DNA from: Gemmatimonadota bacterium
GTDB lineage: Bacteria > Gemmatimonadota > Gemmatimonadetes > Gemmatimonadales > GWC2-71-9
DNA length: 64,000 bases
Reading direction: 5' to 3'
NCBI GenBank assembly: GCA_036679645.1
Contig: JAZDCY010000014.1
Location: forward strand, 64,001-128,000
Shown: positions 11,507 through 26,444 of the stretch, in pieces
Layout of the letters: every line of letters begins with the position of its first letter
Position numbering within the stretch: the stretch's first letter is position 1
Position numbers and translations under genes: made by a program
The notes under the pieces: model-generated
Database searches by the model: none
Seen by the model: only the letters and a program-made list of their open reading frames with translations
What the model was told of the DNA's origin: nothing

Positions 11507-11698
11507 TCAGCCGCCCTCGGGCCGCTCCCGCACGCGCAACCCATGTGACCGCCGCCGCCTGGCAAACAGCGCGGCCACCTCGCCCAATCGCTCAATCCGC
11601 TCGAGCTTCTCACGGAAGGGAAGCGCCAGGAAGTCCTGACGCTGCCGGCGGCGGTTCCCCTCCCATGTCGCGGTGCTCCAATCGGCCCGATCAACCAT
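11507..11698 (-). CDS. Small hypothetical protein, partner of the nucleotidyltransferase (TA-like)
   Basis: 63 aa MVDRADWSTATWEGNRRRQRQDFLALPFREKL...; overlaps the stop of the NTase gene. Confidence 0.6.
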   Translation of the reverse strand: MVDRADWSTATWEGNRRRQRQDFLALPFREKLERIERLGEVAALFARRRRSHGLRVRERPEGG

Positions 11699-12173
11699 CG
11701 CCGGCGTCCCCATGCAGCAGCCGCAGCTCCGCAACATCCGCGAGGTCCTGCGGTCGGCCCGCCTCTCGCTTGAGTCGGAGCAGGGCCTGCAACCGAACGA
11801 CGCGTACCGGGACGCCCGGGGCCACCTCCTCCACCAGCGCGCGCCGGTACTCGTCGTCGAAGTCGAACGGCTCGACGGCGAACACGTCCACCGGGGTCTC
11901 ACGGTGCCGTCCCTTTTCCGCGATCCATCGGGCCCGTACCGCAGGATCACTGAATCCCTCGGCTGTGACAGGCAGCCGCGGCTCATAACCAAGCGACTTC
12001 AGCGCCGCAAACGCCGCCCGCACGTGCTCAGGCACGAGTTTGATGACCAGGTCCAGGTCCTCCGTGAGCCGCCCGTAGCCGTGCGCGTTCACGGCGAGTC
12101 CCCCAACGACGATGTATGGGACACCGGCATCATTCAGCGCACGCGCCACGGCCTCCACGCTCGCAACCCTCAC
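11691..12173 (-). CDS. Nucleotidyltransferase-fold protein (DUF6036/AbiEii-like)
   Basis: VVGGLAVNAHG..RLTEDLDL, VDVF, LLRLKREAGRPQDLADV. Confidence 0.8.
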   Translation of the reverse strand: MRVASVEAVARALNDAGVPYIVVGGLAVNAHGYGRLTEDLDLVIKLVPEHVRAAFAALKSLGYEPRLPVTAEGFSDPAVRARWIAEKGRHRETPVDVFAVEPFDFDDEYRRALVEEVAPGVPVRVVRLQALLRLKREAGRPQDLADVAELRLLHGDAGDG

Positions 12174-12821
12174 CCACTCAACTCCAGCGGCGGTTCGAGG
12201 TCGCTGGTAATCTCATTTATGGTGCAACCGTGCTTGGTGTGACGTCCGGCCGTTATCAGCATCATGTCGTTCATGGCCATCCGGACACAGGGTAGCCTGA
12301 TACAACGGGGAGTCGACCCGAATGGGAAGTACTCCATGGTATGCGAGATCCACGGCACCCTTGTTGGTTCAATAATACCGAATTCTATCCCCCGCGCGCG
12401 TCAATCCAGTGAAAACGACGCCGGGCACCTTCATCGTGTCCGTCCGCCAGACGCTCAGACGCTCGATGGCTATCCAACAGCTATGCCCGGCCGCCAGGCG
12501 CGCGATTGGAGTGCTTGCACGTTGTGGATCACCGCGTCGAAGCACGCGTTGTGGCCCACCAGTGTTCTGAGCGCAGATTCGCCACGCCACTTGGAGATAC
12601 AAAGCAGCAACAACAGTCGCAAAGCGATGTGTCATAGTGGGGAAAAAGCGACGTGATTTCCGCCACCGGAGGATTGCCTGATCCATGAGTTCGACCGGAC
12701 TTGATAGATTCATAGATTTTTCATCGTGCCTTTAGGCCAGGCTCTCTAGACTTATGTGGGGTGCTTGGAAAGTTCGGATTGCCTTTCTGTTGCGGCTGTA
12801 GCTCCATTTGGGGGATCATCG

Positions 12822-13433
12822 ATGCCGCTCGATAGGCACCTCGCAGCTCTTGCGACGGCGGTCGCTATCGGAGCCACGAGCCTCGTAGTCGTGCTTGGCC
12901 TACAGAACCGGTCACTCGAGACTCGCTATGGCGAAGCACGGCGTCTTGCTACGGAACTGTATCCGGGATACGGCGTCCCGGAATTCGCTACTGCTACGCT
13001 GGAGGGTGACTCCGTCGTCCTCGGCGCCGCGCCAGAGTCCGTTCGCCAACTTCTCCTCGTATTTGACACAGAGTGCGACTACTGCCGCGCCACTGTACCG
13101 GCATGGAAACAAGTGCTCAGTGTCCTCGATTCTGCTTCGTATCGGCCGATCCAGGTTCTTGGCATCTCTCTCGACAGTGACAGCGCCACGCGAGTGTACC
13201 TGGAGGACCTCGAGTTCGCTCTTCCGACGGTCACGATGCGCGACCCGAAAACCCTCCAGCTGTATCGTCTTCGGTCAGTACCTCAGACGATCCTCCTGGG
13301 GCCGCGTGGATACGTCATGTTCGCGAGGACTGGCCAGCTCTCGACCCCCGAAGCGGTAGACACTCTGCTTCAAGTAATCAAGCGTGTCGCTGGTGACGTG
13401 TCTTCCACAGAAACTGCAATACGTTCGCATTAG
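12822..13433 (+). CDS. Membrane-anchored thioredoxin-fold (TlpA/redoxin-like) protein
   Basis: N-terminal TM helix, FDTECDYC active site, LGISLD, SVPQT cis-Pro loop. Confidence 0.85.
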   Translation: MPLDRHLAALATAVAIGATSLVVVLGLQNRSLETRYGEARRLATELYPGYGVPEFATATLEGDSVVLGAAPESVRQLLLVFDTECDYCRATVPAWKQVLSVLDSASYRPIQVLGISLDSDSATRVYLEDLEFALPTVTMRDPKTLQLYRLRSVPQTILLGPRGYVMFARTGQLSTPEAVDTLLQVIKRVAGDVSSTETAIRSH

Positions 13434-13506
13434 GGCCATGGAGAACTCCGTTGATTGGGAGCCCTGAGGAACCCACAGTGGGAACCGCAAACTGAAGGAG
13501 GACTGT

Positions 13507-13743
13507 ATGTCGCGCATCACGAAGGTTGCCGCACGAGCTTGTGGTGCGGCTATTGTCGTAGGTGGACTGCTCTTTGGCACGTCCCAAGCCCTTGCAGGCT
13601 CATCAGACGGCTGCTTGTGGGACCCTCCACACCTGGGGTCATGCGCCAACCAGGTCGACTGTCAGTACAAGTGTGATCAGTACTACGGCTATGGGTACTA
13701 CGGCAGCTGCACAGCTGGCTGTTGCCACTGTATCGAGTGGTAG
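13507..13743 (+). CDS. Secreted cysteine-rich peptide (8 Cys, CS-alpha-beta/defensin-like spacing)
   Basis: Strong RBS AAGGAGGA at 13495-13502; 30-aa Sec signal ending ALA; 48-aa mature region C-x9-C-x5-C-x3-C-x11-C-x3-CC-x-C. Confidence 0.8.
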   Translation: MSRITKVAARACGAAIVVGGLLFGTSQALAGSSDGCLWDPPHLGSCANQVDCQYKCDQYYGYGYYGSCTAGCCHCIEW

Positions 13744-13753
13744 CCCAGCGTGC

Positions 13754-13784
13754 CCGGCGGGGTGAGGCTCCCACACCTCGCCGG
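13754..13784 (+). terminator. GC-rich hairpin after the peptide gene (terminator or mRNA stabiliser)
   Basis: CCGGCGGGGTG...CACCTCGCCGG stem with one G-U pair; no U-tract. Confidence 0.45.
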
Positions 13785-13889
13785 CCCTCAGGCTCGGGAC
13801 CGTCAAAGGACGTCTGGAACAGGCGGACGCTACGTTTCCCGACCATAACGCCTCATTTTCGCGCGCGCCCCGGGTTCCGAGGTGCGGCC

Positions 13890-15173
13890 GTGTTGTTACC
13901 GGTGCTTCTTGCGGCGTGCCAGCAGGAGACGATTCTCTTGCCGGGTCGTGGGGCCGCACCTCGGGATTCCTCTGCGATTGATACAAGCGGCACGACAACG
14001 GACACAACGGTAGTCCAGCGCGTGGGACTCGTACTGGCCGTTCGAGTTGGCGGCGAAGATTCAGTGCTCGCGAATGCCCTAGGATGGCAGACCAACGCGA
14101 TTCCCGGCGCTGAAGTTACAGTGCAGCGATCAGGTTCATCGATCCGGCAGACCGATCGAACTGGATTGGATGGGTCGGTAGAATTCCCTGCGCTGTTGCC
14201 CGGCGAGTACCGGGTCTCGGCCATCCGAATTCTGACGCCCAGCGAATCATCCTTGCTGGGTCCTGGGAACGAGGATGTCGACGCCTTTGGGGGGAGTACA
14301 AGTCTCATACTCGAACCGCCTGCGGCCGAGGACACCCTCGTCATCGGTGCTGGTCGCCGTGGCTCACTCGTAATCAGCGAATGGTCTTTCTATATCGCGA
14401 TCATCAACGGGACGCCCTATGAGTTCGGCGGTTTTCTGGAACTCTACAATAACTCAGACAGGACCGTGTACCTCGACGGGAAGCTGTTCGGGGCCGGGTT
14501 TTCGGCGGCGTTTGAAAGCCCCGTCGAGCCCTGCAGCACTTGGGCCACGTACCGGAATGATCCACAAGGTGTCTGGACCGAGACAGTCTTTCGCTTTCCG
14601 GGCTCAGGCCAGGACTACCCCGTAGCGCCAGGGCAGACGATAGTGATGGCGACGGACGCGATTGACCACGGTCAACTTGTCACCGGCGGACTGAACCTTC
14701 GCAATGCACAATTTGAGTTTCTCGGTAGCGGCGATGTCGATAATCCCACCGCCGCGAACATGATTGACGTGGGTCCGCGCCCCTTCACGCTCTTCGCCCA
14801 CGGGTTCTTCTTCTTCACGACTGCGGCGCTTCCCTTTCTCGCTGACGCCGTTGACCTCAGTACCCTCCCGACAGCAAGGCTTTTCGCAAGCGGAAGAGAG
14901 TACGTCCGCATACCAGCCAACAAACTACTGGACGTTGCAGCCTTGCGTTACTTCGGACCGAGCCTCGGGCCAGCGTGTCCGGAAATGGTCCATGCCAGTA
15001 TCGACGGCGCAGCGTTTCTCATGCCAGAGGACAATCCGGGCGGGGCCCGTTCGGTGCAGCGACGCGTCATCGGTAGCTTCGCGACTGGTCGTCAGGTTCT
15101 GCTACGTACCCGTACCAGTGCTCGCGATTTCGACTATCGCGTTCGCACCCCTGGTAGCCTACCCAGGCCCTGA
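13890..15173 (+). CDS. DUF4876-like lipoprotein (Ig-like domain plus lamin-tail-like domain)
   Basis: Lipobox LLAAC (Cys codon 13917); LVISE, FLELYNNSDRTVYLDG, FRFPGSGQDYPVAPG, ATDAIDH, DVDNP, RTSARDF. Start uncertain: GTG 13890 or in-frame ATA 13845. Confidence 0.7.
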   Translation: MLLPVLLAACQQETILLPGRGAAPRDSSAIDTSGTTTDTTVVQRVGLVLAVRVGGEDSVLANALGWQTNAIPGAEVTVQRSGSSIRQTDRTGLDGSVEFPALLPGEYRVSAIRILTPSESSLLGPGNEDVDAFGGSTSLILEPPAAEDTLVIGAGRRGSLVISEWSFYIAIINGTPYEFGGFLELYNNSDRTVYLDGKLFGAGFSAAFESPVEPCSTWATYRNDPQGVWTETVFRFPGSGQDYPVAPGQTIVMATDAIDHGQLVTGGLNLRNAQFEFLGSGDVDNPTAANMIDVGPRPFTLFAHGFFFFTTAALPFLADAVDLSTLPTARLFASGREYVRIPANKLLDVAALRYFGPSLGPACPEMVHASIDGAAFLMPEDNPGGARSVQRRVIGSFATGRQVLLRTRTSARDFDYRVRTPGSLPRP

Positions 15174-15201
15174 TCGAACGGGCCACTGGAAGATCCCTGA
15201 C

Positions 15202-18039
15202 ATGTGCGGCCGTCGCGCAGTCCTCCCGTTCGTCCTCCTGCTGGGGGGAACCATGCACGGCACGCTTGTCTCGCAGGAGCAAGTGGTAGGTCCTCTGATC
15301 AGGGGACGGGTGACCGACCATGTGTCGGCGCTTCCCATCGCGGGAGCGATTGTGGCACTTGAGGGGAGCGGATTCAGTGCTATGACCGACACGGCTGGCA
15401 ACTACAACTTGATCAACTTGCGACCCGGACCGGCCATCCTGCTCGTTCGGATGATCGGATACGCCCCTGCCAGAGTACCGCTCGTTGTTCCACCGTCCGG
15501 CATTCTCCATCGCAACATCGCGCTGGCACGAAATGCCCTTGAACTCGCCGAGATCATCGTGACCGCTGATCCGGCCGGCCGCGCGCGCGGCGAATTGGGA
15601 ACAGCAAGTGTCATTGAACACGACGCCATCGTGAACCAGACGGCGGCGAGCATCGCTGGTATTCTCGAGCTAGTCCCCGGCATACCGCTCGCGGCTCCGG
15701 GCCTCGAGGAAGTGCAGCAGATCCAGCTCCGCACCGCCCCGGTGTCTAGCGGGGGAATAACGGCCGGCCCCAGTGGCGCCGATATCGCAGCGTTCGGCAC
15801 CACTATCATCCTCGACGGAGTTCCGCTGTCAAACAACGCCAACCTACAGAACACCGGACCGCGAGGTGAACTGCGGCCCCCTAGCTCCTCCGGGGGCGGC
15901 ATCGATCTTCGGCGCATTCCGGCATCAACTATCGAGCGCGTGGAGGTCATTCGGGGTGTGCCCTCCGCCCGCTACGGCGATCTGACTCACGGCGTGATCG
16001 TCGTCGATACGCGCGCGGGGCGAGTGTCGCCGGCAGCTACCGTCCGGTACGATGCGCGGACGACTGAAGCCAGCCTCGTCGGGGGATGGCGTTTGACCCC
16101 TGATCACACTGCCACCGCCCACTTCGACGTGGCCCGTACGAGGAAGAACCCCGGTATCACTGACGCCGATGTCCTACGCCTGACGGGACAACTGGCCCAC
16201 CGGGCGGCATTCGGGTTGCAACAGGACCAGCCCGCGACCCGTGCGCAGTTGGAGTTCGACACACGACTCGATTTCTTCCGGGTGGTCGAGGACAATCCGG
16301 AGCAGCCAGACGTTCTCCCTGGTTTCGCGACGCGCGCGAGCGACTTTGGCTTTCGGCTGTCCGAACGTGCCCGATTCCATCCGTCCCCGAACTCTGCCTT
16401 CGTGCTAACGCTGGCAATGGACCACACTCGACAGCGGTCATTTGTCCAGTCGTTCCGCCTCCGAGGAGCGCTCCCGTTCACTGATCGCCTCGAGGAAGGT
16501 CTGGCGATTGGCCGCTACGTGGGGGGCGAGTACTTGTCGCGCGTCGATCTCGAGGGAGATCCGTGGCTTGTTTATGGGCGTGGTGAGTGGGTGGGCGCGC
16601 CACGCGGTCTGGGAGGCCTGGACCATCTGTTGCGCGCGGGGTTCGAATTGCGGCGGGAGTGGAACGAGGGTGCAGGCTACCAATTCGACATCGAGTTCCC
16701 CCCCCAAGTTCGGTTCAACGGAGTACAGGGCTTTGACCGGCCAAGGCGATTCGACGCGGTGCCGCCTCTCGCGACCAGCGCCCTGTACCTGACGGACAGG
16801 ATCTCCGGGCAGCCGCTTCTTGGCATGCCCCTCCAAGTTCAGGTCGGTGCTCGCGTGGATGTTCTCCACCGTGGGACGACCTGGATCTCGGGGTACCGTG
16901 ATCTCGTCTGGCAGCCGCGCATGAACGTAGAGCTGGGGCCTCGTTGGTGGCTCCGCATCCGGGCGGGCGTCGGGAAAACGGCGAAATACCCGTCGCTTGG
17001 AAGCCTCTTCCCTCCCCCCCAATACTTCGACGTCGTCAACGTGAACTGGTTCGTGACCGATCCCGCCGAGCGTCTTGCTGTCTTGACCACGTCCATCAGC
17101 GATCCAACCAATCCAGATCTCGGACTCTCCGCCACCTGGAAGCGCGAGGTGGGCGCCGAAATGTCGCTCGGCCGGCGGGGCGGTTCTATCGCAGTCGTCC
17201 TCTTCGACGACCGAACAACAGGGGCAGTGGGGTTTCGCTCAGTCACTGGTTTCCTCACACGTGCTCGCTACGCCCTGTCCGATTCCTCCGAAGGCACCGG
17301 CGTACCCCCAACCATCATCCAACCACCGGCGTACACGGACACGGTTCCCATTCTGATCGACGAACCCACCAACAACTTGACGGTATCCAGTAAGGGCTGG
17401 GAGGTGTCCGCCAGCCTCCCGGAGATTCCCAAAACCCAAACCCGGCTTGACATCCAGGCGGCATTCATCGAGACAAGGGTCTCCCGCACGGATGTGGTTT
17501 TTGGATCCGGCACTCGGTTCTCCGAGTTTCAACTGAACGGCGCAGTTCCGCGAGCCCCATACTGGGAGGGCGCGACCGGTACCGGTCAGCGACTGACGGC
17601 CACGTTCCGCCTGGTTCACCACCAACCGCTCCTCGGCTTGGTCATCACCGGCACTATGCAGTTCATCCTGCGCGAGTCGAGACGCGACATAGGGGGAACC
17701 GATACGTTGTCTTTTGCCGGCTACGTCACGCGTGCCGGTGAGTTGGTTCCCGTCCCGACGAGTGACCGAACAGCACCCCAGTTCGCAGATCTTCGCCAAC
17801 CCCGTGGCGGCCTGCTGATCGAGCCGCGAGGCACGCCTGATGACTGGCTACTCAGTCTTCAGGTATCCAAAACGCTTCCACTGGGAGGTCGGTTTTCATT
17901 CTACGCGTTTAACGCTCTTGACCGCGAGGGCAGGTTTGCGCGTGCAGGGACCACACCGCGACCGTTTCCCAGGATGCGCTTCGGCCTCGACATCGCCATG
18001 CCGTTGCGCTCGGTTCTCGGTGCCTGGATGGATCCGTGA
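15202..18039 (+). CDS. TonB-dependent receptor with N-terminal carboxypeptidase-regulatory-like domain
   Basis: Signal peptide; IRGRVTD...MIGY; plug motif GGIDLRRIPASTIERVEVIRGVPSARYGDLTHG; long beta-barrel. Confidence 0.9.
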   Translation: MCGRRAVLPFVLLLGGTMHGTLVSQEQVVGPLIRGRVTDHVSALPIAGAIVALEGSGFSAMTDTAGNYNLINLRPGPAILLVRMIGYAPARVPLVVPPSGILHRNIALARNALELAEIIVTADPAGRARGELGTASVIEHDAIVNQTAASIAGILELVPGIPLAAPGLEEVQQIQLRTAPVSSGGITAGPSGADIAAFGTTIILDGVPLSNNANLQNTGPRGELRPPSSSGGGIDLRRIPASTIERVEVIRGVPSARYGDLTHGVIVVDTRAGRVSPAATVRYDARTTEASLVGGWRLTPDHTATAHFDVARTRKNPGITDADVLRLTGQLAHRAAFGLQQDQPATRAQLEFDTRLDFFRVVEDNPEQPDVLPGFATRASDFGFRLSERARFHPSPNSAFVLTLAMDHTRQRSFVQSFRLRGALPFTDRLEEGLAIGRYVGGEYLSRVDLEGDPWLVYGRGEWVGAPRGLGGLDHLLRAGFELRREWNEGAGYQFDIEFPPQVRFNGVQGFDRPRRFDAVPPLATSALYLTDRISGQPLLGMPLQVQVGARVDVLHRGTTWISGYRDLVWQPRMNVELGPRWWLRIRAGVGKTAKYPSLGSLFPPPQYFDVVNVNWFVTDPAERLAVLTTSISDPTNPDLGLSATWKREVGAEMSLGRRGGSIAVVLFDDRTTGAVGFRSVTGFLTRARYALSDSSEGTGVPPTIIQPPAYTDTVPILIDEPTNNLTVSSKGWEVSASLPEIPKTQTRLDIQAAFIETRVSRTDVVFGSGTRFSEFQLNGAVPRAPYWEGATGTGQRLTATFRLVHHQPLLGLVITGTMQFILRESRRDIGGTDTLSFAGYVTRAGELVPVPTSDRTAPQFADLRQPRGGLLIEPRGTPDDWLLSLQVSKTLPLGGRFSFYAFNALDREGRFARAGTTPRPFPRMRFGLDIAMPLRSVLGAWMDP

Positions 18040-19601
18040 CGCGCTTCGTCACCGTCGTCTTGTGGCTAGCCACAATGCAGTCGCTGCAGGCTCAAGAGTG
18101 GACTGACGTCTGGAGCCCCTTCCGCCCGCTCTCGGACGTACCGCGGCATGGACCTCAACCGCCACACATAGCGGTGCCGCTGCTTTTTGGACCCGCCCGG
18201 GTAGGGGAACTGTGGACCGCCGGCAACCCCGCCGGGGCCGCCTGGGACGTACGTGACGCACACACGTCATTTCTCTTGAGCTATGGTCGGGAGGATGGCG
18301 CGTTCCGGCGGCCCCTCGATCCAGAGGCGGTCAACAATCCTCGCCTGGCGGCGGTCGCTTGGAGGCCGGTGCGGAGCAACATCGCCGCCGTCGGTCGCCT
18401 CACCCTAGAGCAGCAACGGCACCGGCCCGGATCCAATGCGGCGGTGGCGTTTCCGTACGGGACGAGCCCACTCGTGCCCACCGACAGCTCATCGCCGCCT
18501 ACAACCCTGACCAGAGCCCGTCTGGAGGGGCTCGTTGCGTGGCGGTTCGACCAGTGGAGCTTCGGCCTCTCGTTGGGATACGAATCCTGGGACAACCGCA
18601 CCCGGGAAACACCAGTCCCGCGCATCGGTCGTCGCGTCGCACCGGCCGGCGCCTTCGGAATCGTTCGTGCAATAGGCAGGCTGTTTCTCCTGGGCCTGCA
18701 TGTGCGCGGACGACGTACCGTGGAAACCGTGACGATCAACCCGCTGGCCGGCACCAGTACCGTCCACGAACTTGATGGCTTCAGCGACCCCGAACCAATT
18801 CCCGTCATTGCCCTTCGATACCGCCGTCGGATCACCACGGATGAAAGGGCAGCAGGGACCTCCGCGACCGGTTCGTTGGGGCTAGTCCACTGGACAGCCT
18901 ACGGGCGCAAGGAGTGGCGAGACCAGTGGCACAGCAGCCTGGAGCAGGAGAATCCTCCCGTGGACGCTTGGCGCGCGTCAGGTATCACGCTCGGTGGCGC
19001 ACTCCAGTACGTAGCTTCCAATCGAATCCCGATGATCACTGTGCACGCGTCTCGAACCTCCATCAGCGGTCACGCTGAGCGCGCCGACCTTGACGGTACG
19101 ATCTTCCGCGCGAGCGAGCGCGTGACACGCGCCGGAATCGAACTCCGCTCGGATGACACCACCGCGACCTGGGCTGGTGCCATCGGGCTCACCATTACGC
19201 ACGAGTCCCGGTTCCGGGAGGATTTCCTGGTACAACACATCGCCGATCTAAGTGAATGGACGCCGGGTGCGACCGTCGAGATAGTGCATCGCTTCGAGAC
19301 CGGGACCAGCATGGCGGTCGCAGGCTCACTCGGGTGGCACTCGGCCGTTTCTCGCATTCCGGACCCTGCCACGCTGGGCCCAATCTATCAGCAGCTCATT
19401 GCGCCCGAACTGGCGCTCTATGCGCAACGTGCCTATCCGTGGCTGGTGCGGATATCCGTGCGTCAGCGTCTGAGTACGCACACGTCACTTCTGGTCTCGG
19501 CGTCCCATCGCGTTCTTCGGCCGGCGTCTACTTCGGCAGTCCCGGCAGCCCCTGGCGGCTTGCGCAGATCATGGCATTTCCTCGCTGGACTCGTGCTCTA
19601 G
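18036..19601 (+). CDS. Outer-membrane beta-barrel protein (DUF6850-like)
   Basis: Signal peptide, AGNPAG motif, amphipathic beta strands; GTGA-coupled to the TBDR. Confidence 0.6.
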   Translation: MTRFVTVVLWLATMQSLQAQEWTDVWSPFRPLSDVPRHGPQPPHIAVPLLFGPARVGELWTAGNPAGAAWDVRDAHTSFLLSYGREDGAFRRPLDPEAVNNPRLAAVAWRPVRSNIAAVGRLTLEQQRHRPGSNAAVAFPYGTSPLVPTDSSSPPTTLTRARLEGLVAWRFDQWSFGLSLGYESWDNRTRETPVPRIGRRVAPAGAFGIVRAIGRLFLLGLHVRGRRTVETVTINPLAGTSTVHELDGFSDPEPIPVIALRYRRRITTDERAAGTSATGSLGLVHWTAYGRKEWRDQWHSSLEQENPPVDAWRASGITLGGALQYVASNRIPMITVHASRTSISGHAERADLDGTIFRASERVTRAGIELRSDDTTATWAGAIGLTITHESRFREDFLVQHIADLSEWTPGATVEIVHRFETGTSMAVAGSLGWHSAVSRIPDPATLGPIYQQLIAPELALYAQRAYPWLVRISVRQRLSTHTSLLVSASHRVLRPASTSAVPAAPGGLRRSWHFLAGLVL

Positions 19602-19792
19602 GGTAACTCCCATGCGGGTATCGTCGTGCCGCCCCGCGACTTCCGTCCGCGAAGCGCGGGGCTGGACGTAACCGCGGATCGTGGCCATGACCGGGTTCTA
19701 CGCGTTCGACCTCAACGGCAACCGGCTCTGGGACGTGCATATGGGCGCCGGGGAAGAGCCGTGGTTTGCGGGGCCGCCCAGGCGCTCCGGGG

Positions 19793-21496
19793 TTACCCGA
19801 TAGCTGCACCTGGGCGCCAGCCGCGCGACTGGAGTGCCTGCACCTTGTGAATCACCGCGTCGCGCGCGGCGTGTATTGGGAGCACGATCAAGTCACCCTC
19901 CCGGGCCCACGCCAGCGCCTCGCGCAGGGCCCCCAACTCGTCGTCAACCCGTGCCACGCTTTCCTCGGCGACACCGAGTTTGTCCAGCTCGTCCGCGATG
20001 ATTGCCGCCACCTCCCCTTCCGGTCTGCCACGCAGGTAGGTCCGCATCTCCTTGATGATCACGCGATGGGGTGCGAACGTGATCGCCGCGCGCACGAGAT
20101 CACGAATGTCGTCGTCGCTCCGGTCGCCTGCCTGGCCGATTACCACGAGCCGACGTTTGGCGGGCATCGCTTGGACCATCTCGCCTACCGCTCGCATACC
20201 GTGCGGGTTGTGCGCGAAATCCAGAAAGACCCGCACTCCACCCAGATCGAACAGATGCCCTCGGCCGGGGTTCGCGTCCGGTGTACTCGCGAAGTGGTGG
20301 ATCGCCGCGCGAATGGCCGCTGATGACACACCAATGGCGCGCGCGACGGGAATGGCACCGAGAATGTTGGAGGTATTGAATTGCGCCGCACCACCGAAGG
20401 TGATCGGCGCATCGGCAACCGCACCGTAGTCTTCGGTAACCCCGCAGGTACGAAACGCAAAACGCCCATCCGCCACGAACGCGGCGTCGTCATCCGGCAT
20501 CGTATCGGTCATGCCGAACCACACGTGTGCGGCGACCTCGACATCACGAGCGCGGCGCATGACCACCGGATCGTCCGCGTTCGCCACGAGTACCCCACTC
20601 GCCCGCACGGCATGTGCGATCACGAGCTTCGCCCGGGCGATATCGTCGACGGTGGTCACGCCAAACTCACCCAGATGATCCGAGGCGACGTTGGTGAGCA
20701 GCGCGGCGTCCGCACGTTCCACCATCAAGCCTCGGCGGAGCAGCCCGCCACGGGCGGTTTCCAGCACGGCGACCTCCACGCGTCGGTCGCGCAAGATTGC
20801 GCGCGCCCCTCCCGGACCGGACCAGTCACCGGCATCGATCCGATCTCGACCGACGTAGAGCCCATCCGTATTGCTGCAACCCGCGACCTGGCCGTCTTGC
20901 GCGATCATCGCCGCAAGCAACCGTACGGTCGTGGTCTTCCCGTTGGAGCCCGTGACGAGCGCCACCCGCACGTCGTGAATCCCGTTCCAGTCCACCGCTG
21001 ACGGTGCCGGCAGGACGTGCGTGGGCCACGTCAGTGAGCCCACGCCCATCCCAACCGACACTTGATCGTCATCCCACAAGAACGCCACCCCATGGGCGCG
21101 CGCCGCTTCCCGGAGCGCGAGCATCGCAGGGTTCCGCTCAGCGGCAATGGTCGCCTGCAACCGCGGCGCAACGACCTCGAGCGGCGACGGCGACGCTCCA
21201 CCAAAGTCGGCGCAGGTGGCGGCCCAGGCCCACTCGTTCACCTCTGTCGCCGCGTAAAGCGCGTCGATGGGCACCGTGAGCACGAGACTCGCACCTCCCG
21301 GAAACGTCCGAACGGCTGTGCGCTGGTCCTTCCACCCAACCGCGTCGAGGGCGTCTCTCGCGTGCACCTTCCAGCGCGCGATGACGGCATCTCCGTCGAC
21401 GCCGGCGATATGAACGTCGAGCACCGCGCCAGCGACACTGGTCTGGAGATTGGGACCGGTCAGTCGGCGCGAGTCACGCTGTTCGAGCGTCGGCAC
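19793..21496 (-). CDS. Cyanophycin synthetase-like Mur-ligase protein (N-like domain plus M domain, no ATP-grasp)
   Basis: GTG 2 nt after the cphA stop; DSRRLTGPN N-terminus; VTGSNGKTTT, LETARGGLLRRG, DHLG, NADD, PGR, DFAHNPH, GDR. Confidence 0.85.
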   Translation of the reverse strand: MPTLEQRDSRRLTGPNLQTSVAGAVLDVHIAGVDGDAVIARWKVHARDALDAVGWKDQRTAVRTFPGGASLVLTVPIDALYAATEVNEWAWAATCADFGGASPSPLEVVAPRLQATIAAERNPAMLALREAARAHGVAFLWDDDQVSVGMGVGSLTWPTHVLPAPSAVDWNGIHDVRVALVTGSNGKTTTVRLLAAMIAQDGQVAGCSNTDGLYVGRDRIDAGDWSGPGGARAILRDRRVEVAVLETARGGLLRRGLMVERADAALLTNVASDHLGEFGVTTVDDIARAKLVIAHAVRASGVLVANADDPVVMRRARDVEVAAHVWFGMTDTMPDDDAAFVADGRFAFRTCGVTEDYGAVADAPITFGGAAQFNTSNILGAIPVARAIGVSSAAIRAAIHHFASTPDANPGRGHLFDLGGVRVFLDFAHNPHGMRAVGEMVQAMPAKRRLVVIGQAGDRSDDDIRDLVRAAITFAPHRVIIKEMRTYLRGRPEGEVAAIIADELDKLGVAEESVARVDDELGALREALAWAREGDLIVLPIHAARDAVIHKVQALQSRGWRPGAAIG

Positions 21497-21498
21497 CC

Positions 21499-24285
21499 TC
21501 AGTCTTCGGTATCGCGGGCTAGGCGCACGCCGCGCTCGTCCCGGATGACCTCCTGGCCGGCATCGATATCGATCGTCGGTAGGTCCGGCAGCTCCGGTGC
21601 TGGCCGCTTCGCGACCTCGCACCCGTCGCGCGTCGTTCCATCACTCGTGTAGTTCACCACCTGCTTCCAGGTCCGCCCAATCTGATCGGCGAAGAGCACG
21701 AGCAGATCGTCCGGCCGCGCGGCCTCGAGAGCCGCCGCCACGGCGGCCCGTTCCTCCGGGATGGTCTCGACCGCGTCCGTGGCAACACCATTGTCGATGA
21801 GGGCACGCTGCAGCATGCGGGGTACCTCATCCCCGTCTCGCCCGCGCAGGGCATCGTCGCGCCGGCAGATGTAGTGGTCGAACGCGCCCGCCGCGATCGT
21901 TCCCATTTCGATGATATCCTCGTCCCGCCGGTCGCCGGGAGCGGCTAGCACGCATAGCCGCCGGCCGACCACGTCCAAGCGGCCCACGAGATCGCACATG
22001 ACCTGAATTGCGTGGGGGTTGTGCGCGTAGTCTACGATCACCTTGAACGGCAACTCGTTGTATACGTTGAGCCGGCCCGGTGCCTGAAAGTAAGTGGAGT
22101 CGAAGGTACGGAGCCCGTGTCGGACATCTTCGAGCTTGAGACCAGCGCTGTACGCCATGGCCGCCGCGAACATGGCGTTCTGCACGTTGTGGATGGCTTT
22201 GCCCTCGATCGTCGCCGGGATGAGATGGGTCCACAGCAACGGCAAGTGCGCGCCCTTGTCGTAGAACGTGATCATGTGCCCGCTGATCGCCTGCTCGAGC
22301 ACCACCGCTCGCCCACCCGCCTGGATGTGCTCGCGGACGAGCGCGTGCTGCGGGTTCATCGTTACGTAGCAGACGTGTTCCGCATCGGAATAGTCCGCCA
22401 TCTTGAGACACAACGGGTCGTCGGCATTGAGCACGGCGGTGTTCTTCGCAATCTCGATGACCACCCGCTTCACCTCGGCCAGTTGCTCGAGCGTATCGAT
22501 ACCGCGTAGGCCAAGGTGATCGGCCTGCACGTTGAGACACGCGCTCACGTCGCTGCGGCGGTACCCCATGCCGGCGCGCAGCAGTCCACCCCGTGCCGTC
22601 TCGAGCACCGCGACCTCCACCGACGGGTCACGCAAGACCATACGCGCCGCCACTGGACCGGTCATGTCGCCTTCGACCGTCCGCTGCCCGTCGATGTACA
22701 CGCCGTCCGTCGTGGCCACGCCGACGGTGTGTCCTGCCATCTTGTAGATGTGGGCCAGCATCCGCGTCGTCGTCGTCTTGCCGTTGGTACCGGTGATTGC
22801 GAGGATGGGAATGCGGGCCGGTGTACCGGGCGGGAAGAGCATGTCCATGACCGGTCCTGCGACATCACGGGGTATCCCCTCACTCGGCTGGACGTGCATG
22901 CGGAATCCGGGAGCCGCGTTCACCTCGCAGATTGCACCGCCGATGTCCTTGTAGGACTTGGTAATGTCCGACGTGAGGAAATCCACGCCAGCCACGTCCA
23001 GGCCAATCGCCTGCGCCGCACGGACGGCCATCTCACGGTTATCCGGGTGAAGCACGTCGGTCTGATCGACCGCGGTCCCACCGGTTGATAAGTTGCCCGT
23101 CGATCGGAGGTAGACCACTTCGCCTTTGGGCAGCACGGTCTCGGACGTGTACCCCAGCAATCCGAGCAGCCGGTTAGCCTGGTAATCGAATTCGATCCGC
23201 GTCAACACCTTCTCGTGTCCGATCCCGCGTCGCGGATCGGCATTCACCTCGTCGACCAACTCCGCGATCGTGTGTACCCCATCCCCAACGACGTGCCCGG
23301 GGACACGTTTCGCCACGGCGACGAGATCACCGTTCACGACCAGCATTCTATGATCGAAGCCCGCAATGTACGACTCGATCAAGACACCGCGTGAATGCTC
23401 CCGCGCCTGGGAAAACGCCGCACGCACGTGGTCGCGGTCACCAATGTTGATCGAAACACCGCGACCGTGGTTCGCGTTCAACGGTTTGACCACTACCGGA
23501 TAGCCCATGCGTTCCGCTGCCCGCAGTGCGTCCTCTTCGGAGTAGACGAGTCGCTGCTTGGGAACGGGAAGACCAAGATCGCCGAGGATACGATTGGTCT
23601 CGTCCTTGTCGGACGAGATCTCGACCGCGATATGCGGTGTTCTACTGGTGACGGTGGCTTGGATGCGCTGCTGATAGCGACCGTGTCCGAATTGGACGAG
23701 GCTGTACTGGTTCAGCCGCAGCATGGGGATGTCGCGTTCGCGCGCCGCGCGGACGAGTGCCGCCGTTGAGGGTCCCAGGGCATGGCGCTGCGTATACCGG
23801 ATGAACGCATCGCGCTCAGTCGCGAAATCATAGTCATCGGCGACGGCACCCGCGGGCTGCAGTTCCCGCGGGAGAAGCGAATGGAGGAGATTCAGTCCCA
23901 CGCGACCGGCCTCGAGACCGACCCGTGCCTCCTCGTACTCGTACACGACGTTGTACCGTCCCGGCGCACCGGTCGTCCGCGTCCGACCAAAGGTGACTTG
24001 CTCACCGGCGGCATTCTGCAACTCGAGCGCCGTGTGTTCCAGCACGTGCCCGAGCCACGTACCTTCATCCTCCCGCAACCGCCGTACGAACCCACCGGGC
24101 TCACCGTACGAGCACCCGTGTTCGCCGAGACCCGGGAGCGCCTCCAACAACCCATCGATGAACGCGTTGCCCAGGCGCACGCTGGGCCACTCCTCGAGCG
24201 TGCCCAGGTCGAGCACGAACCGAATCACGGGGAAGTGCGCGTAGAGATTCGGGCCCAGGTAGACGGAGCGTTCGACGATGTCCAT
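21499..24285 (-). CDS. cphA: Cyanophycin synthetase CphA1
   Basis: N domain CSYGEPGGF...GHVLEH; LGPST; ATP-grasp VVKPLNANHGRGV, NLSTGG, EVNAAPGFRMH; Mur domain TGTNGKTT, DYAHNPH. Confidence 0.96.
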   Translation of the reverse strand: MDIVERSVYLGPNLYAHFPVIRFVLDLGTLEEWPSVRLGNAFIDGLLEALPGLGEHGCSYGEPGGFVRRLREDEGTWLGHVLEHTALELQNAAGEQVTFGRTRTTGAPGRYNVVYEYEEARVGLEAGRVGLNLLHSLLPRELQPAGAVADDYDFATERDAFIRYTQRHALGPSTAALVRAARERDIPMLRLNQYSLVQFGHGRYQQRIQATVTSRTPHIAVEISSDKDETNRILGDLGLPVPKQRLVYSEEDALRAAERMGYPVVVKPLNANHGRGVSINIGDRDHVRAAFSQAREHSRGVLIESYIAGFDHRMLVVNGDLVAVAKRVPGHVVGDGVHTIAELVDEVNADPRRGIGHEKVLTRIEFDYQANRLLGLLGYTSETVLPKGEVVYLRSTGNLSTGGTAVDQTDVLHPDNREMAVRAAQAIGLDVAGVDFLTSDITKSYKDIGGAICEVNAAPGFRMHVQPSEGIPRDVAGPVMDMLFPPGTPARIPILAITGTNGKTTTTRMLAHIYKMAGHTVGVATTDGVYIDGQRTVEGDMTGPVAARMVLRDPSVEVAVLETARGGLLRAGMGYRRSDVSACLNVQADHLGLRGIDTLEQLAEVKRVVIEIAKNTAVLNADDPLCLKMADYSDAEHVCYVTMNPQHALVREHIQAGGRAVVLEQAISGHMITFYDKGAHLPLLWTHLIPATIEGKAIHNVQNAMFAAAMAYSAGLKLEDVRHGLRTFDSTYFQAPGRLNVYNELPFKVIVDYAHNPHAIQVMCDLVGRLDVVGRRLCVLAAPGDRRDEDIIEMGTIAAGAFDHYICRRDDALRGRDGDEVPRMLQRALIDNGVATDAVETIPEERAAVAAALEAARPDDLLVLFADQIGRTWKQVVNYTSDGTTRDGCEVAKRPAPELPDLPTIDIDAGQEVIRDERGVRLARDTED

Positions 24286-24289
24286 GGGA

Positions 24290-25129
24290 TTAGTGCTGGG
24301 CTACGTCTGCCGGTTCCGCGGCCGTCCGCGTGGCAATGTCGAACGTCCAACCGGCCACGAGCACGTGAATCTTCAGGCCGACCAGACACACTGGGTCGTC
24401 CTGCCGCGCGGAATCCATTGAGGAGAACTCGAGTTCATGTCCGTCAGCAATCGTGAGCCCGCCCGTTCCCACCACTTCGAGACGATCGTCGGGATCGATG
24501 AATGCAGCGGTATCCTCGTCCAGCCCAACCCCGATCACGAACGGGTTGTACCCAATGGCCGTCAGCAACCGGCCCAATCGCTCCCGCTGACGAAAATGAT
24601 GATCGACCACTACCCGATTCGTGAGCCCCAACCCGGGCGCCAGCGTCACGCTGTTGGCGCGGGGCGAGAACCCTTCGTCCCCAAAGGCAATCATGTGCTC
24701 CGACAAGAAACCCGCGCCCGCCGACGTTCCGGCAACAGGCACACCCGATGCATTCAACCGACGGATCGTCCGCGCTACAGCCGTGCCTCCCATGGTGGTC
24801 GAGAGACGCAACTGGTTCCCGCCGGTGAGAAAAACACCCGTTGAGTTTTCGAAGTCCGCCAAGAGATCCTCTCGCTCGCAGTCGCCACGGGACATGAACG
24901 GATACGCTCGCGCCTCGCCCACACCCAGCTCGCCAAACACCTTCTCGTAGCGCCGCCCCGTCTCCGTCAGCTCGGACGCTGTCGGCACGATCGCGATCCG
25001 CGCGTCGTTGCCACCACACAGTTGCACAAACCGCCGGAGAATGTCCGGGTTCCGCATCTTCTTCTCGGCACCCCCAATGGGAATGATGTACCCGCGCGTG
25101 CGCCCTTCCGGGACCTGCGATGGGCTCAT
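24290..25129 (-). CDS. cphB: Cyanophycinase
   Basis: IIPIGGAE, TGGNQLRL, GTSAGA nucleophile, DHHFRQRERLGRL, GLDEDTA. Confidence 0.93.
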   Translation of the reverse strand: MSPSQVPEGRTRGYIIPIGGAEKKMRNPDILRRFVQLCGGNDARIAIVPTASELTETGRRYEKVFGELGVGEARAYPFMSRGDCEREDLLADFENSTGVFLTGGNQLRLSTTMGGTAVARTIRRLNASGVPVAGTSAGAGFLSEHMIAFGDEGFSPRANSVTLAPGLGLTNRVVVDHHFRQRERLGRLLTAIGYNPFVIGVGLDEDTAAFIDPDDRLEVVGTGGLTIADGHELEFSSMDSARQDDPVCLVGLKIHVLVAGWTFDIATRTAAEPADVAQH

Positions 25130-26310
25130 GGCGTTGCCTCGAACGCTCCGTGAATCACCTGTTCTCCTTTGTGAACGTGCCACACACCGCGAGCCATCAC
25201 GTCGGTAACGACTAGGGACGCATCGACGACCACGAGGTCGGCGTCCGCACCGGCGGCGAGCTGCCCCTTGCGACGCAGGCGCAGCAGGTCTGCCACGTTG
25301 GACGTGAACGGGGCAAGTACCTGTCCAAGATGGTGCCCCGCCTCGGTAAGCGTTCTGATGGTGTGCATGAGCGCGCCGCTTTTTCCCACGTCGTAGCGGG
25401 TAATGCGGCCATCCGCACCGAACTCGGGAAAGCAGCCGCCAGCATCTGAAGAGACCGTGATGCGGTTTGCGGGTATGTCCGCCCCCGCCCCCGCCCCCGC
25501 CCCCCACAACCGATCGAGCGCCTCCGCCGCCGAACAGCCATCGTCGGGTACGTCAGGCGGCATGCTCGTGATATCGATTGTGACCCCGTGCTGCGTCAGG
25601 GCGGCGGCCTCCTCGAGCAGCGCCTGGCTGCGATTCACGTGAGTGGGATGGAAAACGCTCGCGGGCAGGTCCGATCCGCTCATCGCGCAGCGCACCGGCT
25701 CGAGTCCTCCCTTGCCGTCACCCACGTGCAGATGAAGCGTCCCCGCCTTGCCGGTCATCATCCCTGCCACATGGGCGTCGCTCGCGAGCCGAATGAGCTC
25801 GGTCGTGGTCGGCTGGCTGGACCTGTGATCGCTGATAGCCGTCTCCCCCACACCGATGACGCGATCGACGTGGACGATATCCCCCTGCACGCTTCCCGTG
25901 AGCGTAGTGGGAGGCAGGTGGTAGCCACCCGTATAGCAGAACGCGGTGAGCCCCTCCTCCTCTAGCCCCCGCGCCGCCGCGAGCAACGAGCCGGTGTTCC
26001 GCGTAACGTCGTCCGTACCGAGGAGTCCAACAACAGTCGTGACTCCCGCTCCGGTGAAGCGGGACACGCCAACCGGCGGGACGCGGCTCCGGGCACCCGC
26101 CTCTCCGCCCCCGCCCGTGACGTGGACGTGGCCGTCGATGAGTCCCGGAAACACACGCGCGCCATCGAGGTCGACCTCCGTGACCTCATAAGCATCAGCG
26201 AGGGGTGGGGCCTTCGTCCCGATCCAGGCAATGCGGTCCTCCACGATCAGTAGATCGCACATTCCCAGATGTTCGGGGGCATACGTGTCGGCGTTGCGGA
26301 ACAGGATCAT
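25126..26310 (-). CDS. iadA: Isoaspartyl dipeptidase (beta-aspartyl peptidase)
   Basis: DGHVHVTGGGGE, GVTTVVGLLGTD, AISDHRSSQP, HLHVGDG, PTHVNR, SSDAGG. Confidence 0.93.
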   Translation of the reverse strand: MILFRNADTYAPEHLGMCDLLIVEDRIAWIGTKAPPLADAYEVTEVDLDGARVFPGLIDGHVHVTGGGGEAGARSRVPPVGVSRFTGAGVTTVVGLLGTDDVTRNTGSLLAAARGLEEEGLTAFCYTGGYHLPPTTLTGSVQGDIVHVDRVIGVGETAISDHRSSQPTTTELIRLASDAHVAGMMTGKAGTLHLHVGDGKGGLEPVRCAMSGSDLPASVFHPTHVNRSQALLEEAAALTQHGVTIDITSMPPDVPDDGCSAAEALDRLWGAGAGAGADIPANRITVSSDAGGCFPEFGADGRITRYDVGKSGALMHTIRTLTEAGHHLGQVLAPFTSNVADLLRLRRKGQLAAGADADLVVVDASLVVTDVMARGVWHVHKGEQVIHGAFEATP

Positions 26311-26444
26311 GAGATAGAGAGGCAAATCTAGACACCACACGCTCCCAAAGGGAGAGCGACCGTGCCGCGCGCCGATGCTGCCGGTGGACCGCGTTGGCCC
26401 TGTGAGGGTATTCTCCGTCTCCCGAGCCGGATGCCGGAGGCCTC

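Follow-up and report, generated by a model that had tools for sequence, protein, structure and literature searches.

Cyanophycin is described as the product of CphA1 (from Asp plus Arg) or of CphA2 (from dipeptides). CphA1 (TIGR02068; PDB 7LG5, 7LGQ, 7WAE, 7LGN, and 7LGM) joins an N domain, an ATP-grasp (G) domain of about 280 residues, and a Mur ligase-like M domain with core and lid. Its Cx19HxxEH motif is the primer-generating site and is present in 83% of CphA1 enzymes (PMC9262961). CphA2 (PDB 7TA5 and 8FXH) is a CphA1 derivative with a single active site: the G domain is active, the N domain lacks the hydrolase motif, and the M domain lacks the P-loop and lid.

One further type of cphA-like gene has been catalogued. 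Vollmers et al. (2013) recorded in Octadecabacter arcticus the gene order cphB-cphA-cphA'-iaaA, in which cphA belongs to group VI and cphA', labeled "cyanophycin ligase-like," to group VII (PMC3646047). Table S2 of that paper lists 28 group VII proteins (among them YP_268602 and ZP_05064377), whose sources are Colwellia, Francisella, Octadecabacter, Congregibacter, NOR5-3, Plesiocystis, and Herpetosiphon and whose accessions mostly adjoin those of group VI proteins; the paper credits group VII to Füser and Steinbüchel (2007) and lists the Acinetobacter CphA1 in group VI. Its main text places the Octadecabacter CphA in group IV, and Fig. S2, Fig. S3, and Table S2 place it in group VI. In the parts of its text and supplements covered here, no domain map, pocket analysis, or function is given for group VII. 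A Lysobacter genome paper only mentions cphA-cphB (PMC4742617), and a sludge study reports that Tetrasphaera has two cphA genes in series, one longer than the other (PMC10687191). The family treated below is not described in the covered parts of PMC11915815, PMC8050183, PMC3060825, PMC10273328, PMC7564069, and PMC2211553, and no functional or structural study of it was found in a literature search whose scope excluded subscription papers and bioRxiv supplements.

In the window, the whole 64,000-nucleotide stretch of Gemmatimonadota DNA that was analyzed, a gene of this kind directly follows cphA:

19793..21496, minus strand: cphA' (probable group VII), N-stub-M cyanophycin synthetase paralog, 567 aa, without ATP-grasp (Pfam, NCBIfam, AlphaFold)
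21499..24285, minus strand: cphA, complete group VI-type CphA1, 928 aa, with N site C58/H80/E83/H84, intact G and M sites, and a C-terminal RDERGV tail
24290..25129, minus strand: cphB, cyanophycinase (TIGR02069 above cut-off)
25126..26340, minus strand: iadA, beta-aspartyl (isoaspartyl) dipeptidase (TIGR01975 above cut-off)

Gene, operon, and family

As originally predicted, the 567-aa gene is coupled to cphA. It runs on the minus strand from 21496 to 19793, has a GTG start and 567 codons, begins 2 nt past the cphA stop codon, and completes the order iadA-cphB-cphA-paralog, all on the minus strand, in which the iadA stop overlaps the cphB start. The products of iadA, cphB, and cphA all pass their NCBIfam cut-offs, and the codon GC pattern of the paralog is like that of the rest of the operon. 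Identity to the neighboring CphA is 34% across the M domain. MurE is encoded separately, on contig C30 of the genome, and the paralog lies outside any cell wall cluster. A scan of the locus for promoters and terminators returned matches at chance level only.

Several peculiarities of the surroundings were recorded. A second, distant cphB-like sequence, matched in two pieces, lies elsewhere in the genome (G000:C56:1322-1995). At 12452-12539 of the window (minus strand), 7.3 kb from the gene, there is a degenerate 88-bp copy of the paralog 3' end (19775-19862; 78% identical; E value, 5e-16). The two copies flank a plus-strand block (about 12756-19601) encoding a thioredoxin-like protein, a DUF4876 protein, a TonB-dependent receptor, and a DUF6850 protein, and the end of the paralog gene may have been the site where this block integrated. 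Two overlapping open reading frames in different frames at 11507-12173 (minus strand) look like one gene, presumably nucleotidyltransferase-like, that was broken by a frameshift.

The best 120 matches to the paralog show 49 to 100% identity at a query coverage of 91 to 100%, the first being the window's own protein. Among the best 150 representatives at 50% identity, 140 are 520 to 660 aa long, 6 are shorter, and 4 are longer, which excludes the possibility, raised with the original prediction, that all homologs are full length. A local deletion, pseudogene, or assembly artefact of cphA, for which only the adjacency to cphA speaks, was rejected on these lengths and coverages; it is further contradicted by the occurrence of the family in many phyla, by the 34% identity to the neighbor, and by a tree position that is not nested in the neighbor's clade, and we consider its probability negligible.

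Genomic context was surveyed in the best 80 of 626 confirmed GTDB loci, which is a selected set. Their hosts are Gemmatimonadota, Acidobacteriota, Planctomycetota, Alpha- and Gammaproteobacteria, Bacteroidota, Rhodothermales, myxobacteria, and Acidimicrobiia. The paralog lies immediately downstream of cphA in 71 of the 80; the other 9 have an insertion after cphA (2 loci), cphA on the opposite strand (3 loci), cphA elsewhere in the genome (2 loci), or a cut by contig ends (2 loci). Neighbors in these 80 loci include cphB (66), iadA (31), and an iaaA-like gene (5), besides which no conserved neighbor that hints at a substrate was found. In a sample of 400 genomes the paralog occurs in 2, both times right behind a group VI-type cphA, and 24 genomes carry other CphA types only. 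The family genes are variously annotated as "Mur ligase family protein," "UDP-N-acetylmuramyl tripeptide synthase," or "cyanophycin synthetase," and such mixed annotations can inflate cphA counts. In one family member, represented by two records (P0168), a DUF559 domain is inserted in the N region.

Because gene order, hosts, and partner clade match, the family is very probably the group VII CphA' of Füser and Steinbüchel (2007), a comparison drawn from these three characters and not from sequences. The Octadecabacter order, including the iaaA-like gene, recurs in 5 of the best 80 loci, 4 of them alphaproteobacterial. The kinds of hosts are the same (Colwellia, roseobacters, and myxobacteria), and we found the family in the genus Colwellia and in roseobacters in strains other than those on the 2013 list. 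Group VII lies beside group VI cphA; correspondingly, the paralog stands in tandem with a cphA (71 of the best 80 of 626 loci), and the best PDB matches of its partner are the Tatumella and Acinetobacter enzymes (TmCphA1, 1052 bits; AbCphA1, 1031 bits; SuCphA1 reaches 795).

Domain architecture and catalytic site

From the profile, fold, and motif results, the paralog consists of a shortened N domain, a G-core stub of about 40 residues, a linker, an M core, and an M lid:

21137..21496, minus strand: N-like domain, about residues 1 to 120, without the Cx19HxxEH primer-making site; family motifs SRRLxG and APxDxLY
21017..21136, minus strand: G-core stub, about residues 121 to 160, one helix and three short strands resembling CphA1 residues about 170 to 206
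20282..20971, minus strand: M core, about residues 176 to 405, with P-loop TGSNGKTT (182 to 189), T210, E246, D273-H274, K290, and N377
19796..20281, minus strand: M lid, about residues 406 to 567, with R412, H429, GDR, and RGR kept and S460, M484, and H542 corresponding to CphA1 R787, D810, and D867

Pfam detects only Mur_ligase_M (residues 181 to 384) and Mur_ligase_C (residues 414 to 539) in the paralog and no ATP-grasp family, the domain whose absence had been noted originally, whereas the neighboring CphA shows N, ATP-grasp, and Mur domains. Of the 862 positions of the TIGR02068 profile, 480 to 853 align, and the score of 325 bits stays below the cut-off of 850. The P-loop TGSNGKTT, ETARGG, DHLG, and DFAHN motifs are all present, so that the reading of a complete M domain holds. 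The proposed G-domain start, NPAMLALREAARAHGV aligned with GPSTAALVRAARERDI, was recovered, albeit weakly: a profile-profile alignment pairs paralog residues 105 to 155 with CphA residues 153 to 206 (E value, 0.0012; probability, 19%). This is also the best profile match of the N region, which is barely detectable by sequence, and for the rest of the G domain beyond the stub profile-profile alignment gave no significant match in the paralog. The P-loop lies 142 to 210 residues downstream of the N-terminal RRLxG motif (n = 180 family members). As an HxxEH motif upstream of the P-loop occurs in only 1 of 210 family members, the primer-making site is absent from the paralog, in agreement with the N-like start without a hydrolase motif that had been read from the sequence.

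An AlphaFold model of the paralog (47-sequence alignment; pLDDT, 95; pTM, 0.93) superimposes on CphA1 chains (1-873) over 541 to 547 of its 567 residues (Z score, 34 to 38; rmsd, 3.7 to 5.5), and the domain mapping against CphA1 structures suggested with the original prediction thus bears it out. Against a lid-less chain, 398 residues align with an rmsd of 2.8. When residues 1 to 175 were modeled separately (pLDDT, 97), the best 15 Foldseek rows were all CphA1 or CphA2 chains; in the models, the N region has the fold of the CphA N domain. All leads from the ESM Atlas, one of them to PF18921, stayed below 0.9.

The paralog thus shares with CphA1 an N-like domain, the M core and lid, the ATP and acceptor residues, and their arrangement, and differs from it in lacking the ATP-grasp domain, the Cx19HxxEH motif, and three lid residues. 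Like CphA2, it has an N domain without the hydrolase motif; in contrast to CphA2, it keeps the M site and lacks the G domain, the opposite pattern, and the description of the protein as a mirror image of CphA2 is apt. With MurE-type ligases (DNPR in Escherichia coli and DNPA in Staphylococcus aureus) it has in common the catalytic core, the GDR motif, and the Arg of the DNPR loop (R489). MurE, however, has a UDP-MurNAc-binding N domain, whereas the N region of the paralog is CphA-like, and the TIGR01085 score is 90 against a cut-off of 257. The N-stub-M protein is a real, conserved architectural variant of cyanophycin synthetases, probably already catalogued, for which we found no functional study.

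In the M domain of TeCphA1, ATP and Mg are contacted by K499, T500, T522, E558, R731, and H748 (PMC9427784), and that of SuCphA1 is inactivated by D585A/H586A (PMC9262961). At least 98% of 209 paralogs retain the equivalent residues K187, T/S188, T/S210, E246, R412, H429, D273, and H274, with Ser counted for Thr and two sequences without a regex-matching P-loop left out of the set. K290 and N377 are likewise kept in at least 98% of the 209; from the alignment to MurE, we take K290 to be the carbamoylated Lys. The signature of the Mur ligase superfamily (P-loop, catalytic Glu, DH motif, Lys, and ATP-binding Asn/Arg/Asp) was found in the paralog. On the acceptor side, D224, G227-P228, A248-R249-G250-G251, and R254 are common to the paralog and CphA1 and are not shared by MurE. 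The segments matching these residues reportedly hold the C terminus of cyanophycin, in the 2021 work of Sharon. Two extra arginines are near invariant in the paralog (R232, 97%; R255, 99%). Judged by its residues, the Mur ligase site of the paralog is apparently active.

The lid pocket

In MurE, the Asp of the DNPR/DNPA loop and a Glu in the loop after the last strand bind the amine on the side chain of Lys or diaminopimelate (DAP) (PMC3829189). In CphA1, acidic residues are conserved in both equivalent loops, as is the second Arg of GDRR. A CphA1 Arg pocket with Arg bound was not found in the literature covered, and the assignment of the pocket therefore rests on homology to MurE. By this analogy, positions 460, 484, and 542 of the paralog would lie in the amino acid pocket, the match to MurE being one of loops and not residue for residue.

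Gap-free anchoring of the lids pairs these positions with R787, D810, and D867 of the window CphA. The R787 position is Arg in 98% of 65 group VI and 92% of 40 other CphA1 sequences; paralog position 460 is Ser (39%), Asp (25%), or Thr (15%) (n = 206). At the D810 position, 100% of 63 group VI and 92% of 40 other CphA1 sequences are acidic, compared with 1% at paralog position 484, which is hydrophobic in 86% (n = 194), has Leu, Met, or Ile as the replacing residues, and lies in a loop that is one residue longer than that of CphA1 and has a conserved Tyr-Leu. The D867 position is acidic in 100% of 61 group VI and 87% of 38 other CphA1 sequences; at paralog position 542, for which 143 of 209 sequences could be parsed, His (64%) and Leu (29%) prevail and acidic residues amount to 0%. 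R459, R489, and R491 are kept in the paralog lid. Position 483 is acidic (Glu or Asp) in 88% of 194 paralogs versus 3% of group VI and 52% of other CphA1 sequences, and this residue could take over the binding of a cation.

Since the lid pocket is changed, the residue that the paralog attaches is likely other than arginine. The loss of two acidic positions that are 87 to 100% acidic in CphA1 and 0 to 1% acidic in the paralog argues against Lys and Orn, which, along with Arg, had been put forward as substrates in the original prediction; citrulline or another neutral residue could still be the substrate. From that prediction, the conserved N-stub-M side-chain ligase with an apparently active site stands, and Arg, Lys, and Orn as the residues added are now less well supported.

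Pairing with group VI CphA1 and proposed function

Co-occurrence with cphA, proposed at the outset as a check, is strict within the window's phylum. A survey of 301 Gemmatimonadota genomes found 89 with a match to the window CphA. A group VI-type cphA (at least 63% identity) is present in 68 genomes, near complete in 64 and split over contigs in 4, and the paralog was found in all 68; it was recognized in 54 by a second, M-only match (34 to 41% identity), in 5 from fetched regions, and in 9 with an N-region profile. The 54 paralogs inferred from the M-only match are adjacent to cphA except in one genome (G179). The N-region profile found the paralog in none of 16 genomes with other CphA types only (42 to 57% identity), and it had no match in 4 genomes with weak single matches and 1 with a cphA fragment at a contig end. 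Because related genomes are not independent, the contrast of 68 of 68 with 0 of 16 describes a pattern and does not serve as a test.

Pairwise distances of paralogs and partners correlate (Mantel r = 0.70 for 61 pairs; maximum of 999 permutations, 0.12), which shows joint inheritance, not contact. A FastTree phylogeny was built from 61 M domains and rooted with the MurE of the genome; it groups the 23 paralogs in a single clade (support, 0.80), which falls outside both the group VI clade (1.0) and the sampled CphA1 as a whole (0.72). As the tree contains no cyanobacterial CphA1 and its root is distant, the secure conclusion is that the paralog is not a recent copy of its neighbor.

Some loci hold further cphA-like genes. 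Two different full cphA genes lie beside the paralog in L127, L128, L129, and L130, and in L129 the second cphA stands between the group VI cphA and the paralog. In L111, L113 to L121, and L130, another cphA type (41 to 47% identity to the window CphA) is followed by an N-domain-only gene and then by cphB; the N-domain-only gene encodes a stand-alone protein matching CphA residues about 11 to 140 at 38 to 45% identity.

The partner CphA1 is complete. All 20 checked N-, G-, and M-site residues, including the Cx19-21HxxEH motif, are kept in 65 of 65 sequences, which rules out a split CphA1 whose partner has a dead M domain and makes it unlikely that the paralog is needed to add Arg to poly-Asp. 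TmCphA1, a close relative of the partner, is highly active alone when primer is given (PMC9262961). With a complete partner and a relative that is active alone, the paralog is to be seen as an accessory and not as a missing half, and a second Arg ligase would be redundant. Group VI CphA1 proteins end in a C-terminal tail, RDERGV...D, with an invariant final Asp (window, 21499-21570; L001 to L079). We considered this tail as a dock specific for the paralog and rejected it, since a similar tail occurs in TmCphA1 and AbCphA1 and tail-less acidobacterial CphA1 proteins occur in paralog-bearing genomes.

One natural fusion joins the two types of M domain. P0135 and P0467 (964 of 972 residues identical; contigs up to 84 and 48 kb) are 972-aa proteins in which a CphA1-type M domain with the acidic lid is followed by a short linker and a complete paralog with the changed lid; the evidence is one cluster of two records, and the DNA context of P0467 was not found among metagenome contigs. 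Two different M domains in one chain would fit nonredundant functions. The fusion begins right at the M domain, and its origin may lie in a CphA1 whose N-G and M portions had become separate. A search for longer fused forms in the range of 1268 to 3620 aa returned two matches, both rejected: P0465 has shifted reading frames and looks like a sequencing artefact, and P0466 is an unrelated, divergent CphA-like protein of 1295 aa with a C-terminal PF09587 domain.

The explanation that we tentatively prefer, at close to an even chance, is that the paralog is an accessory side-chain ligase for a non-arginine, probably noncationic, amino acid. The N-like domain would hold the polymer made by CphA1, and the M core would use ATP to phosphorylate the Asp beta-carboxylate as CphA1 does. 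The rebuilt lid pocket would then pick a different incoming amino acid, probably a noncationic one, so that the product would be either a mixed cyanophycin or a chain with a cap. Such a polymer could later be recycled by CphB and by IadA/IaaA, isoaspartyl peptidases that are promiscuous (PMC10206079). Literature searches found no variant cyanophycin from paralog-bearing organisms.

The paralog might instead be a second Arg (or Lys/Orn) ligase that fills unmodified Asp residues or balances the rates of the half-reactions, so that the polymer would be ordinary cyanophycin. Its catalytic and acceptor residues are those of CphA1, the acidic residue 483 (88%) could bind a cation, and R232 and R255 would suit an Asp-rich acceptor; however, three lid residues conserved in CphA1 are consistently replaced, the M domain of the partner is itself intact, and the related TmCphA1 reaches high activity with no helper of this kind. 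We give this explanation a limited chance. A role mainly as a hetero-oligomeric or regulatory subunit, docked on the CphA1 oligomer and with any catalysis secondary, would account for genes 2 nt apart here and in tandem in 71 of the best 80 of 626 loci, the restriction to one CphA1 clade, the correlated distances (Mantel r = 0.70; 61 pairs), and the natural fusion. Yet the paralog is without most of the G core, the main dimer module of CphA1 and CphA2, the near-total conservation of its catalytic residues is not expected of a scaffold, and the RDERGV tail of the partner is not paralog specific, and a chiefly docking role seems unlikely to us. Rather unlikely, finally, is a ligase for a small or nonpolymer acceptor (free Asp, a beta-Asp dipeptide, or short primers) that feeds or drains the cyanophycin pool. 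The shrunken N domain without a primer-making site, its conserved surface unlike that of CphA1, and the isoaspartyl peptidase genes nearby (iadA in 31 and iaaA-like in 5 of the best 80 of 626 loci) are consistent with such a role, but the kept N-M arrangement of CphA1 fits a polymer substrate, and primers are already supplied by the partner itself, whose Cx19-21HxxEH residues are present in 65 of 65 sequences.

New here, beyond what had been catalogued, are the pairing with a single CphA1 clade, the altered lid pocket, and the fusion of two M domains. A widespread M-only partner whose pocket differs would bring into cyanophycin synthesis a step that has not been studied, and the polymer stored by many heterotrophs of the sea, soil, and sediments may then be something other than plain beta-Asp-Arg. 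We consider it a realistic, if somewhat less than even, prospect that the paralogs form a third class of cyanophycin synthetase: a stand-alone side-chain ligase working with group VI CphA1 in many heterotrophic phyla to build a natural poly-Asp copolymer that bears a noncationic amino acid (or to cap chains with this residue). The aims of cyanophycin engineering include side-chain diversification (PMC8050183). If this reading is true, it would point to an unrecognized storage polymer and provide an enzyme with which the side chains of cyanophycin could be tailored directly.
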